The notes under the pieces: generated by a model
Seen by the model: the letters and a program-made list of their open reading frames with translations, nothing else
Database searches by the model: none
Told to the model about the DNA's origin: nothing
Assembly (NCBI GenBank): GCA_964016885.1
Contig: OZ024761.1
Location: 31,062,001 to 31,126,000 of the forward strand
Direction of reading: 5' to 3'
DNA length: 64,000 bases
Origin: Eledone cirrhosa
Taxonomy: Eukaryota
Shown: positions 38,501-60,450 of the stretch, piece by piece
Layout of the letters: every line of letters starts with the position of its first letter
How positions within the stretch are numbered: the first letter of the stretch is position 1
Translations under genes and position numbers: made by a program

Positions 38501-38521
38501 CTACAATTTAGTATGTTGGTT
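38501..38521 (-). CDS. HVCN1: Hv proton channel, terminal coding exon (NQHTKL-stop)
   Basis: Strong acceptor tttttcttcgttgcag, phase 0 matching the upstream donor; minus-strand AATAAA at 38112-38117. Confidence 0.6.
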   Translation of the reverse strand, partial: NQHTKL

Positions 38522-38789
38522 CTGCAACGAAGAAAAATATAATCTGTATTAGGAAATAGTATTTTACTAGAAGGCTACAACAATGCAAAATGGGACTATC
38601 AATTCGACATTGGGTTGGCACAATTGCTTGAATTAGTGAAGAAATCTATAAGTATGCATGTGTGGCGAACCCCTTAAATTCTAGCCATTAGAAAAAGCAA
38701 AACAAATGCTTCATCTTCGACGGAGGGAGGACTCACGAAGAAGAGAAGATCTTGATATTAAAAGTTAATTTAGAATTTTCTTTTTTTGT

Positions 38790-38940
38790 AATATTATTTA
38801 TACAATAATAAGGTAGAATAATATTATTTATACAATAATAAGGTAGAATAATATTATTTATACAATAATAAGGTAGAATAATATTATTTATACAATAATA
38901 AGGTAGAATAATATTATTTATACAATAATAAGGTAGAATA
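38790..38940. repeat. 30-bp tandem repeat x5
   Basis: (atattatttatacaataataaggtagaata)5. Confidence 0.95.
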
Positions 38941-39074
38941 CGAATCGATTTTTGCCGTTAACAGAGAACCTAAATGAAAAATGACAATTTCAAACATTTG
39001 TCACACACAGAGGTTCACCAGGTCCGAACATAGTGAAACAAAACTCCCACTGTCACCGCCTCTATCTCTTCCCA

Positions 39075-39412
39075 TCTCTTGCCTGCTTAAACGCATTCAG
39101 AACATAAGCTGGCGACATCTGACTTTGAGAGAGATATATGCCGGCCTCCTATGCATATCTGTCGTTGTACGTAAAAGGAGAGTAAGATTTGCTGGCCCCT
39201 GCCATCGTGCCACCTATGAGGCTGTGTCCCCATTAGTGATTTGGAAACCACAAGCAGTCACTAATAACAGGGGATGCAAGCTCTCCTATCCCGATGTGAT
39301 CCCCAGAGATTCTGGTATTGAAATCCAGGACTTGGCAACAGCAATGAACGACAGAGTCACGTGAAGATCAATTGTTGAGTCCATTTCGGCTGCGGCCACC
39401 GAATGATGATGA
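39075..39412 (+). mobile_element. Old RTE-like LINE 3' remnant in the last Hv intron
   Basis: LLKRIQNISWR, RRVRFAG.CHR, AMNDR followed by (tga)n. Confidence 0.6.
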
Positions 39413-39444
39413 TTAAAAAAAAAAAAAATGAAACAGCAACATAC

Positions 39445-55709: not shown

Positions 55710-56336
55710 TTAAAGTGTTTATTTATCTATTTATATAATACTAAAAGTCTGTGATGGCTTGCTTGCTTGTCTGTAATATAATACAGTTTAAAATGCGCAT
55801 AATGGGAAAATACGTTGAAAGGAAGTTGAACCTGAAATGGGAATACAAATGAAATAAAACAAGTTTCGCGTAAATCGAAGCTTGGGTTCCCGAGATATAG
55901 GGTTTTTTCGGGTACCTTCATAAACAGAGAGAGAGAGAAAGATAGAAGGGAAGAGATAGTGGTTGTGAGAGAGTAGATTGAAAGAGAGACATAGAGAGAG
56001 GGAGAGGAGACAGAGAAGGAAAATGGAAGAGAAAGGGAGCAGGTGTTGTTGTGTATATAAATATAGGTGAGTGTGTGTGTGTATATATATATATATATAT
56101 ATATATATATATATATGTGTGTGTGTGTGTCTATGACCAGTGTATATAGATCACAGACACCCATATATATACACACACATATATATAAATATATATATAT
56201 ACATACACACACGTATATATATATATATATAGGCCTTCCAGTTTCATTTCACATTATATACATGTCTGTGGATATTTTAATTATTTAAGAATTATCTTTT
56301 AAGTGAACATGATTTTAAAAAATATTTTTAAGTGAA

Positions 56337-56365
56337 CGTGACCCAACGGGTCACGGGTGATCTAG
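56337..56365 (+). mobile_element. Helitron-like 3' terminus
   Basis: Hairpin cgtgaccc-aac-gggtcacg followed 6 nt later by CTAG. Confidence 0.45.
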
Positions 56366-57559
56366 CATTTATATAAAACCCTTCTCATCATACTTTTTGT
56401 AATAACCGTTGTGTTAAATTATGTTCTAAACACCAGCTTAATAATAAATCCCCACAAATTCTTGATTATTTAAAAAAAAGAATGTTTGAAAATCATAGGC
56501 TGTGAGTTTCATTAGAAATATAGTAATGAGAGGAGGTTTAAAATTTACGAACACAAATTGACTCTAGCAGTTTGCTGATATAGTAATGTGGATTAAAATG
56601 TGTTTAGTAGTGTGATGAATAAATACTATTTACTTCCTTTCCACTGCTTGCTACGTACGACAAAATGGCAGCGAAAAACCAGTGTTTATTGAAAAGCAGA
56701 CGACGACGACTATTTCTGGGTGTAGCGTGTGAGGCAAGTGAAGCCAAAATAGAATATAGATTTCGTCTAAGGGAACAAGATAAGAGAATAGTCAATAAAC
56801 GGATTGTATATAAGATATATTCGGTCGCCTGACTAACAAACAATTCTGCACTGAACTAAATAGAAACAACACTCGGTCTAGTAAGGATGTGTGATAGCAA
56901 TGGATGAAGAATTTCTTTTAGTTTATTTATTTATTTATTGTTATAATTTTTTTTTTTATGTATTAAAGATGAGATTAAGTCTTTTGTCCTTTATTCTTTT
57001 ACTGGTGTCAGCTCTTAGACCGTGGCCATGCTGTGGCACCTCATTTATTCAGTCAATCATATCGATCCCAGTACTCATTTTTTTTTCAAGTCTGGTACTT
57101 AGTTTACCAATTTATTATTCTTTTTTTGTCGAACCGCTAAGTTACAGGTCACACACACACACACACACACACACACACACACACACACACACACACACAC
57201 ACACACACACACACACACACACACACACACACACACACACACACACACACACACACACACATATATATATATATATATATATATATATATATATATATAT
57301 ATATATATATATAGAGAGAGAGAGAGAGAGAGAGAGAGAGAGTTAGAAAGTGAACAACACAATATATAACTGTCATCAGACAGAGATGTTATAACATCTC
57401 TCTCTGATGAACGATCCAGACGTATATTAATATTGTCTACGATCCAGAAACCTAAATAAACATAAACTCAATATTAAGATAGTAGAAAGACCAGGTACCT
57501 CCGTAAAAACACTTATTAGCAAGACATACCCTTTTCAAAGACCCTCATGTATAGATAAG

Positions 57560-58200
57560 AAATGCATAACCTGTAAAATAAGCCCCCATATTAACTGTAA
57601 AACTAGAAATGTAGTCTATAGCATAAGATGTACTGAAGGACAATGTAGAGACAAAAATATAGTGTACATAGGTGAGACAGCTCGTAGTGTAGGGGAACGG
57701 ATAAATGAACACTGGCGAGACCTTCAAGATAATAAAGAATCATCTGTACTCTACCAACATGCTAAAATAGAACACAAGGGTAAATTAGAGAACATAGAAA
57801 TAAAAATAGAATCTACACAGAGAAAAGACGCAATGTTTAGACAAATTACAGAGGCAATAAACATAAAAGAATTACAACCAAAATTAAATAGAAAATATGA
57901 GTGGAACAGCAACATCACAACTTACAATTAAGGACAAAATGAAAACACACACACACATAGAACAAACAACCAACCAGTAACATGTAAATAAACAAATAAA
58001 TAAATGAACATAAACACACACAGACACCCGGATGTGGCGCATGCGCAGACTGAGCACACAACACACACACACAAACAAAATGGCGTAGGACAGAACAAAG
58101 GAGAGGCACAGAAACAAAGAAAGGAATCCCCAGTCACCGAAGAGGTCACAGAGTGTGTGACGAAAGAACTATGACTATATATAAACAACTATCTGGTTGT
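57560..58200 (+). mobile_element. Penelope-like element 3' part: GIY-YIG endonuclease and hammerhead-bearing pseudo-LTR
   Basis: CKTRNVVYSIRC...YIGETARSVGERINEH...EAINIKELQPKLN (57662-57931 and upstream), followed by a hammerhead motif at 58132-58176. Confidence 0.85.
58132..58176 (+). ncRNA. Hammerhead-like motif (CCGAAGA core variant) downstream of the GIY-YIG ORF
   Basis: agtca-CCGAAGA-ggtcacagagtgtgtgac-GAAA-GAAC-TA-tgact. Confidence 0.6.
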
Positions 58201-60311
58201 GGAACCAACCAACCAACCAGAAATTTATAAATTTATAAATTTATTATAAATTTATTATAATAAATTGAAGTGAAAGCAACTGGTGCGTGTGTTTCTTATT
58301 GGCAACATGACCCTCCCAAAGTATAACAATATATATATATATATATATATATATATATATATATATATATATATATTTATATATATATATATATATATAT
58401 ATATATATATTTATATATATATATATTTATATATATATATATATATATATATATATATATATATATATCTGTGTGTGTGTGTGTGATAAAAGAGGACACA
58501 ATTGTCTTTAGTGACACGCTGTGGCAACGAACCTGTAAGCAGGAGGCTGGCGAGCGAACCCCCTTAACCACACAGCCATTCCTGGTTCCATGCAAAAATT
58601 AATCAAGCTTAAATTATGAAACTGTATCTACCACAAAAAATATCGCTTAGCAGAGAATTGGTTTAAAAACAAACAATCAAAAACAGTGATGTAAGCACAA
58701 TAAATTGACCCCTCCCCAAAGAGACACGTTAAACCCCACGTGACATCCAACCCACGTGACACCGAGCCCACGTGAAACCAGAATCGATTACATATCGATC
58801 GAGAGATATCTAATTTTAGGCTCTTTGTAACAAAAAGATACATAATAGTACATATTCCTTATATGTATATATATATATATATATATATATATATATATAT
58901 ATATATATATATATATATATATATAGTACACATATATATATATAGTACACATATAGTATATATTTATACATGTGTGTGTATGTATACAATAGTACACATT
59001 ATATATATATATATATATATATATGTATATATATATGTATATATATGTATATATATGTATATATATATGTATATATATGTATGTATATATGTATATATAT
59101 ATGATTGCATATATGTATATATATATATGTATATATGTGTATATATGTATATATATGTATATATTTGTATATATATATATATATGTATGTATATATTTGT
59201 ATATATATATATATGTATGCATATATATGTGTATATATATATGTATATGTATATATATATATATATGTATATATATATATATATACATATATATGTATAT
59301 ATATATGTGTATATATATATGTATATATGAAAATATATATATATGTATGTATATGTGTATATATATATATATATGTATATATGTATATATATGTATGTAT
59401 ATATGTATATATATGTATGTATATATGTATATATATGTATGTATATATGTGTATATATGTATGTATATATGTATATATATATATTTATATATATATGTGT
59501 GTATATACAATAGTACACATATATATAGCATGTATTATATGCATATATATATATATATATATATATATATATATATATATATATATGTATATATATGTAT
59601 ATATATGCGTATAATACATGCTTTATATATATATATGTGCATGTAATACATGCTTTATATATATATATACACACATATATATCCACGAGTACGGAATGTC
59701 GGGTATGACTGATTTACCCCGAGTTGATTTTCTTTGTTCTTTCTTCCTTTATTAATTTCTTCTATTCGATACTTTTGATATATTCACGTTTTAATAATAA
59801 TTGTTTCTACTTCTGGCACAAGGCCACCAATTACCCCAGTACATTACTGGTACTTTATTTTATCGACCCCGTAAGGATGAAAGGCAAAGATAACCTCGGC
59901 GGGATTTGAACTCTGATGCAAAGCATGGCGTCCGACCCTCTACCAATACTGGCAATAATAATGATTTTTAGTATAGGCACAAGACCAGTAATTCTTTTTT
60001 GGGGTTGGGGTTGGGGGGGGGGGGGGGGGCGAAGTCGATTAAATCGACCCCAGTGCGTAACTGGTACTTTACTTTATCGGCCCCCGTATAATAATAAAAA
60101 TTTATATTATTGGCACAAGCCAGCAATTTTGGGAGAGGGTAAGCAGGTCAAATACACACTCACACACACACACACACACACACACACACACACACACACA
60201 CACACACACACACACACACACACACACACATACACATATATATATATATATATATATACACACACACACGCGCACACACACAAATACAATAGAAAACAAC
60301 GATGTACTTAC

Positions 60312-60450
60312 TGTTTACAATGCGAATCACTCTCCATGGTAGCAGTATGATCAATATGGTAGCCGCGTTAGAACCCGGATGATCCCAAATGCCGTCTTTA
60401 AATGCAACATCCAGTGACCAGGATATAACAATGACTGCTGCATCAAAAAC
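60312..60450 (-). CDS. HVCN1: Voltage-gated proton channel (Hv family, Hv3-type), S3-S4 exon
   Basis: VFDAAVIVISWSLDVAFKDGIWDHPGSNAATILIILLPWRVIRIVN; aligns to Hv1 ILDAVVVVVSFILD...LLILLRLWRVARIIN; acceptor ttcttctctaatag, donor A|gtaagt. Confidence 0.9.

Follow-up and report, generated by a model that had tools for sequence, protein, structure and literature searches.

An Hv3-type voltage-sensor gene of Eledone cirrhosa and its position among molluscan Hv3 proteins

The gene at the locus

The stretch of DNA analysed here (the window, 64,000 nucleotides; C22:31062001-31126000, OZ024761.1, of the Eledone cirrhosa assembly GCA_964016885.1) carries on its minus strand the downstream part of a gene which, judged by sequence comparison, is a member of the Hv (voltage-gated proton channel) family of voltage-sensor proteins, and within it of the molluscan Hv3 type with an xPWRxxR motif in the fourth transmembrane segment (S4). 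The same comparison places this window gene in a clade with Aplysia LOC101862058 (clade B below) and not as an ortholog of AcHv3, the Aplysia channel studied by patch clamp. Positions called extended continue the window numbering through the next 100 kb, with 164 kb examined in all. Residue numbers are those of human Hv1.

The in-window part of the gene consists of five exons (Table 1), and this chain is real. A sequence-only reading of the window had proposed five minus-strand exons with GT-AG sites and matching phases that splice into about 243 amino acids (aa), and all five lie where it had placed them. Each exon has an AG acceptor, the first four have a GT donor, and the fifth ends in TAG. 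With lengths of 139, 116, 79, 377 and 21 nt they add up to 732 nt in compatible phases and give a single open frame of 243 aa and a stop; the two alternative frames of this splice hold 11 and 23 stops. The spliced S4 reads LPWRVIR, and the tail after N214 comprises 197 aa. The introns between the five exons measure 9047, 10067, 1181 and 923 nt. An AT-rich 30-bp tandem repeat of about five copies (window positions about 38790-38945) lies inside the last of them.

The spliced peptide is identical to an Octopus vulgaris protein (P0003) in 237 of 243 residues, to an Argonauta protein (P0005) in 209/243, and to two proteins from Logan contigs (P0006 and P0007) in 201/243 and 170/243, and because of this identity the gene is not a chance chain of open reading frames (ORFs). 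Its S3-S4 exon is 100% identical to the proteins of O. vulgaris, O. sinensis and O. bimaculoides and 98% identical to that of Argonauta, and over its 120 core residues the gene does not differ from O. vulgaris (100% identity). Peptides of ten residues that span the four in-window junctions agree at 10/10 with P0003, at 8-9/10 with the Logan proteins P0006, P0210 and P0214, and at 6-9/10 with P0007. The same exon order is found in P0006, P0007, P0210 and P0214, which derive from contigs of 1.9-3.3 kb; frames of 500-700 aa on such short contigs imply, as we infer, spliced RNA in these relatives. Contigs of three sequence runs that cover window positions 38000-42000 extend through the exon-intron borders, and none of the joints listed for them (15 of 728) corresponds to an intron of the gene; they therefore say nothing on splicing.

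Orthologs are found in O. vulgaris (CAI9740694.1, named 'Voltage-gated hydrogen channel 1' in UniRef), O. bimaculoides (LOC106881396) and O. sinensis (LOC115229029). The O. vulgaris model has the same last five exons as the window gene, whereas the O. bimaculoides models carry another segment in place of the 79-nt exon (41003-41081). The gene had been described as hidden, which holds for the ORF track only and is otherwise overstated, given that annotated orthologs exist for three Octopus species and for Argonauta (the Octopus ones automatically only) and octopus genes of this kind are already in the literature. It adds one member to a family already published, with annotated counterparts in other octopuses, and is no discovery in itself; its interest lies in its branch, from which nobody appears to have recorded.

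The exons for S1 and S2 had been expected beyond position 64000. A 54-nt exon encoding the end of S2 is indeed present there, separated from the first in-window exon by a GC-AG intron of 4247 nt (GC donor at C22:31126697). Neither tblastn over the 164 kb nor three genome searches recovered the exons that should encode S1, the loop between S1 and S2, and the greater part of S2 (corresponding to about residues 113-340 of P0003); genome searches of the same kind did recover the S1 exons of both Hv3-type paralogs. Two alternative first coding exons, one of 109 and one of 175 codons, lie about 52 and about 95 kb past the window end and match both N-termini found in octopus models and Logan proteins. 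Between these and the S2-end exon, in the interval expected for the S1 and loop exons, sits the sole run of N in the 164 kb (200 bases, extended 72877-73076, C22:31134877-31135076), which we interpret as a scaffold gap of unspecified size. This gap presumably holds the S1 Asp of the gene itself; since no S1 exon was found in the assembly, the gene's selectivity residue is unseen. All eight exons that were found are open and have intact splice sites.

Table 1. Coordinates of the exons of the window gene and of two further Hv3-type genes of E. cirrhosa
Feature	Position	Strand	Remarks
First coding exon (alternative)	extended 158723-159051	-	ends in phase 2
First coding exon (alternative)	extended 116231-116757	-	ends in phase 2
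Exon for the end of S2, 54 nt	extended 64698-64751 (C22:31126698-31126751)	-	GC donor
Exon for S3, S3-S4 linker and S4	window 60312..60450	-	D174, W182, D185, L205-P206-W207-R208-x-x-R211, N214
Exon for the S4 end plus the long helix continuing from it (likely coiled coil)	window 51149..51264	-	helix from ortholog model
Exon for the end of the post-S4 helix	window 41003..41081	-	also in P0003, P0005, P0006, P0007
Exon for the Ser/Asp-rich cytoplasmic tail with one LPxY motif	window 39445..39821	-	95% identical to P0003
Last exon, 21-nt coding part: six residues ending in T-K-L, then stop	window 38501..38521	-	
Second Hv3-type gene, clade C, Glu at the S1 selectivity position	C22:31562113-31685689	+	about 0.5 Mb from the window gene
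Third Hv3-type gene, AcHv3-like clade	C3:314664009-314820598	-	

Family and branch

Profile searches of the PDB with the orthologs gave strong matches only to Hv1 structures, namely 5OQK (human Hv1/HVCN1, E 1e-23) and 3WKV (mouse chimera, E 6e-18), which share the four-helix voltage-sensor domain; the next match was Cav3 at E 1e-3. In the alignment with 5OQK, the S1 Asp of the orthologs falls on human D112 and Leu-Pro on R205-L206, and the two S3 Asp, the S4 Trp, both S4 Arg and the post-S4 Asn are aligned with their human equivalents (D174, D185, W207, R208, R211 and N214), in agreement with the sequence-only reading, which had reported the Asp, Trp and Asn residues as conserved and the first S4 Arg and its neighbour as replaced by Leu-Pro. 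The octopus branch further differs from human Hv1 in Leu for F150, Gln for E119 and Trp for F182, and in an S1-S2 loop of 174-196 aa in four cephalopod orthologs as compared to a few residues in the human protein. A model of the O. sinensis ortholog P0001 (alignment of 100 rows, mean predicted local distance difference test score (pLDDT) 75.5) has four membrane helices with S4 running into a long helix; this single helix spans residues 257-314, with a pLDDT of 89-97 over most of its length. With this model, Foldseek returned no match at E<=0.001 (top row 5OQK, E 1.2), and VIA-align returned generic four-helix bundles, voltage-sensor domains among them, at Z of about 9-10. Pfam yielded nothing relevant on three single exons, and full-length orthologs score for Ion_trans only below the cut-off.

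Published criteria for an Hv candidate are the presence of S1-S4, an Asp or Glu in S1 as filter, a Trp in S4, and at least two positive residues around this Trp (Chaves et al., 2022; PMC10911540). All four are found in the orthologs, S1-S4 by hydropathy and by the model. In the assembly the window gene itself displays the end of S2, S3 and S4, with the S4 Trp flanked by the equivalents of R208 and R211. The traits of conventional Hv1, Hv2 and Hv4 proteins (RxWRxxR/K, small size) are absent, the S4 reading LPWRVIR and the orthologs having about 600-680 aa. According to a 2023 review (PMC10377628), the Hv3 family is characterised by an xPWRxxR S4, an extracellular S1-S2 loop of very large size and large intracellular domains; the motif and the large intracellular domains are present in the window gene. 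The profile match to Hv1 structures and the S4 motif bear out the earlier assignment to an Hv3-type LPWRxxR voltage-sensor protein.

Comparison with the voltage-sensing phosphatases (VSP/TPTE) had been suggested as a check, and this identity is rejected: the S4 Trp is present and the S1 Asp is found in orthologs, Ci-VSP having neither S1 acid nor S4 Trp; a Pfam phosphatase domain is present in none of five full-length orthologs; and no VSP chain appeared at E<=1 in the PDB profile searches with orthologs. TMEM266 is not known to carry the S1 Asp. The S1 Asp of the orthologs argues against TMEM266 identity, the trees having been computed without a TMEM266 sequence.

The S3-S4 exon has six matches in the E. 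cirrhosa genome. LPWR is encoded by the window gene, by a locus at C22:31.67 Mb and its copy on C508, and by a locus at C3:314.76 Mb; canonical RLWR loci lie on C20 and C4. For phylogeny, a core alignment of S1 and S2-S4 was assembled from 163 sequences, 24 of which were dropped because they had no scorable S1 or S2-S4 block. The quick tree holds 119 rows (115 distinct cores and four E. cirrhosa rows) and the careful tree 37. AcHv3 (XM_005094218, PMC10911540; listed as LOC101855857 in the PMC10377628 supplement) entered the trees through a stand-in, the Babylonia protein P0176, which is identical to AcHv3 in 93/111 residues by eye. Both trees contain three clades. Clade B (support 100/99) unites the window gene, the coleoid orthologs and Aplysia LOC101862058; the C3 locus joins the AcHv3-like rows in clade A (100/100); and clade C (91/80), with Glu at position 112, contains the second C22 gene. 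LOC101862058 is the closest Aplysia match of the window gene, with a core identity over 120 residues of 65.8% versus 32.5% for the AcHv3 stand-in. Forcing the window gene and four cephalopod orthologs together with three AcHv3-like rows costs 104.8 log-likelihood units (approximately unbiased (AU) test, p 3e-49). The claim that the gene is the cephalopod ortholog of the characterised AcHv3 hence has to be abandoned, as far as the stand-in represents that channel. In the tree with the stand-in, the closest relative of AcHv3 in E. cirrhosa is the C3 locus; it may not be a one-to-one ortholog, because within clade A the AcHv3-like rows are farther from it than other gastropod paralogs are.

Rows of clade B were picked for residue counts by W182 and P206, and their number agrees with the 64-row clade of the tree. 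D112, Q119 and L150 are present in 63/63 rows (the row of the window gene is empty at these positions), and R208, R211 and N214 in 64/64 each, as are the selecting residues W182 and P206. All cephalopod rows (8/8) have Val at position 109, where the remaining rows (55/55) carry Ala, Ser or Gly. Phe150 is found in none of the 114 rows filled at this position among 117 xPW rows. It is kept in the Hv1-like gene on C20 and, by eye, in AcHv1 and AcHv2, AcHv3 having Leu; neither 'F150' nor 'phenylalanine' appears in the main text of PMC10911540. A C-terminal [ST]x[LVI] ends 53 of the 63 clade B proteins, 50 of them as T-K/R-L, as compared to 2/38 in clade A and a background of 4.3%; in the window gene a separate 21-nt exon carries the terminal T-K-L. 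[LP]PxY is present in 29/63 clade B tails and in 0/38 clade A rows, and AcHv3 itself has one. We take the terminal [ST]x[LVI] to be PDZ ligand-like, and LPxY presumably is a WW ligand. Clade B has marks of its own in Gln119, Trp182, a 21-nt exon with the C-terminal T-K/R-L, and a conserved pair of alternative first exons.

Predicted function and its alternatives

AcHv3 conducts protons selectively, leaks, and depends weakly on voltage (about 60 mV per e-fold), and its authors favour weak voltage dependence arising from the S4 motif as the origin of the leak (PMC10911540); the facts on AcHv3 given in the sequence-only reading (LPWRxxR, proton leak) agree with this source. Genes that resemble each of the three Aplysia channels exist in octopus (PMC10911540). 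In human Hv1, the mutation R205W, a hydrophobic replacement of the same first Arg, causes a leak in the closed state (PMC11853527). The window gene and its orthologs resemble AcHv3 in the LPWRxxR S4 (the same LPWRVIR), the S1 Asp, the large S1-S2 loop, the long tail and Leu150 (by eye). AcHv3 differs in its size (980 aa, with a 299-aa loop and a 535-aa tail, against about 600-680 aa in the orthologs of the window gene), in Glu119, Thr109 and Val182 as opposed to Gln, Val and Trp in octopus, and in having no terminal T-K/R-L. The Aplysia member of clade B, LOC101862058 (XM_013086351 / XP_012941805.1), has D112, Q119, L150, W182, LPWR and a T-R-L end; unlike the cephalopod orthologs it carries Ala109 in place of Val, an S1-S2 loop of 116 as compared to 174-196 aa, and a divergent tail. 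In the supplement of PMC10377628 it is listed as a putative Hv, and it is not among the channels characterised there.

Based on these data, we hypothesize that the gene encodes an Hv3-type voltage-sensor protein that is proton selective, weakly voltage dependent and leaky at rest, a combination that we regard as moderately probable. Proton selectivity is quite probable; leaky, weakly gated behaviour, for which AcHv3 and human R205W provide the analogy, is somewhat favoured. As in Hv1, the S1 Asp and the second S4 Arg would pair to form the proton filter. Replacement of the first Arg by Leu would abolish its closed-state pairing with Asp and remove some gating charge, the Pro may kink or loosen S4, and Leu150 in place of the charge-transfer Phe150 may provide a thinner gasket. 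The closed state would thus be poorly locked and little gating charge would move, such that the channel may be partly open over a wide range of voltages. The altered gating proposed in the sequence-only reading can be maintained in this form, by analogy only. The long post-S4 helix would dimerise the channel, the terminal PDZ-ligand-like T-K/R-L and the LPxY motifs may serve anchoring and control of turnover, and the two first exons would provide two N-termini. Such a protein may serve as a background conductance for protons that depends chiefly on the pH gradient.

Several points weigh against a leaky channel and its proposed mechanism. AcHv3 is a distant paralog, as the low core identity of its stand-in indicates; Gln119 and Trp182 differ from the residues of AcHv3; S1 and most of S2 of the window gene are not seen in the assembly; and the roles given to the PDZ-ligand-like and LPxY motifs are putative. 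No recording from a cephalopod Hv3 or from any clade B protein was found in the literature, subscription journals being largely uncovered. Further points of this kind would favour a proton-selective Hv that closes tightly, in which loss of the first Arg reduces voltage dependence, a Val/Leu/Val/Ile gasket still seals, and the leak is peculiar to the AcHv3 branch. The cephalopod rows all have Val109, where AcHv3 has Thr by eye, and the Val/Leu/Val/Ile gasket is kept; Val109 makes the gasket in octopus more hydrophobic, and it may seal. Human Hv1 with F150A or V109A singly does not leak, and only the double mutant does (PMC6754559). Arg-to-Ala mutants of human and mouse Hv1 do not leak either, and the change of Arg to Leu alone might not be the cause of the leak (PMC10911540). 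On the other hand, V109T by itself causes no leak in human Hv1, where only double mutants leak (PMC6754559), and therefore Thr109 by itself does not explain the leak of AcHv3; R205W leaks with the gasket intact (PMC11853527); and the S4 motif favoured as cause by the authors of the AcHv3 study is shared by the window gene (PMC10911540). Tight closure appears rather unlikely.

A protein derived from an Hv channel could also act as a sensor of voltage or pH without conducting protons, similar to TMEM266 or VSP, and signal via its long tail and large external loop. The size of this loop in the cephalopod orthologs, the 197-aa tail with conserved motifs, and the loss of the first Arg, F150 and E119 would fit such a function, which nevertheless appears improbable: the orthologs display all four published Hv characters, the S1 acid (in orthologs) and the S4 Trp that Ci-VSP lacks are retained, no VSP chain was retrieved in the profile searches mentioned above, and AcHv3 conducts despite similar departures (PMC10911540). 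True deletion of the S1 and loop exons, which would leave the gene broken in this animal, could account for the failure of three genome searches and the local tblastn to find them where both paralogs' S1 exons were found. This is very improbable in view of the 200-N run between the S2-end exon and the first exons, the eight open exons with intact splice sites, and a core without a single difference from O. vulgaris. Direct orthology with AcHv3, to which the common LPWRVIR motif might point, is rejected, subject to the stand-in, by the core identities, by the separate, well-supported clades and the AU test, and by the position of the C3 locus, and not of the window gene, in the AcHv3-like clade.

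A leaky, weakly gated proton channel remains our preferred reading, and we would add a more speculative and rather doubtful idea: molluscan 'Hv3' may comprise at least three old subfamilies, and the one to which the window gene belongs, unrecorded so far, would be set apart by the residues around its filter (Gln119, Trp182), by a PDZ-type tail on a dedicated micro-exon and by two conserved N-termini. In cephalopod cells the protein could provide a background proton conductance anchored to a scaffold, with gating unlike AcHv3. All Hv3-type proteins sampled are without Phe150, and within clade B Val109 occurs in cephalopods alone; therefore, octopus and snail orthologs offer a ready-made test. 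The fully hydrophobic gasket, if true, would be a natural experiment in which two possible causes of the Hv3 leak, the Leu-Pro S4 and the gasket, are told apart. Caution seems warranted in transferring the properties of AcHv3 to every LPWR gene, because E. cirrhosa has three LPWR genes on three branches, one of them with a Glu filter.

Further Hv loci and minor observations

According to the review, O. bimaculoides has four putative Hv genes and Aplysia seven, and a family-wide manuscript is being prepared (PMC10377628). No such paper was found in the literature, of which subscription journals were largely uncovered. In E. cirrhosa we count five Hv loci (three of Hv3 type, C20 and C4) as compared to the four in O. 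bimaculoides (PMC10377628). The second C22 gene is by eye the ortholog of Aplysia LOC101852977, and Glu at position 112 is found in 6/6 rows of clade C; a copy of its 3' part, 99% identical, is present on C508 and probably represents a haplotype left unmerged. At the conserved S2 counter-charge E153, the C3 gene carries Gly, as do its octopus orthologs, and an inverted partial copy of one exon of the C3 gene, with a stop, lies at C3:314801946-314802116. The mRNA XM_014931773 of the review may belong to the protein XP_014787259.1; the offset of 144,514 between the two numbers, against 144,546 for the Aplysia pair, is only suggestive.

Downstream of the window gene, Pfam RVT_1 fragments lie at window positions 25300-26688 (+), followed by a PHD finger, 16722-17585 (-) and 9141-9752 (-); these are likely pieces of LINE-type retrotransposons.

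Within clade A, the Mytilus proteins P0165, P0171 and P0172 carry Gly in place of the second S4 Arg (R208), with one Arg left; this residue is called fully conserved in the review (PMC10377628). A further 11 clade A rows have Asp at N214. Among the first 96 proteins collected, 33 (within P0039-P0096) are short ORFs with an S4 that contains neither the first Arg nor the Pro (xLWRxxR-like), possibly the non-molluscan large-loop Hv type of the review (PMC10377628).

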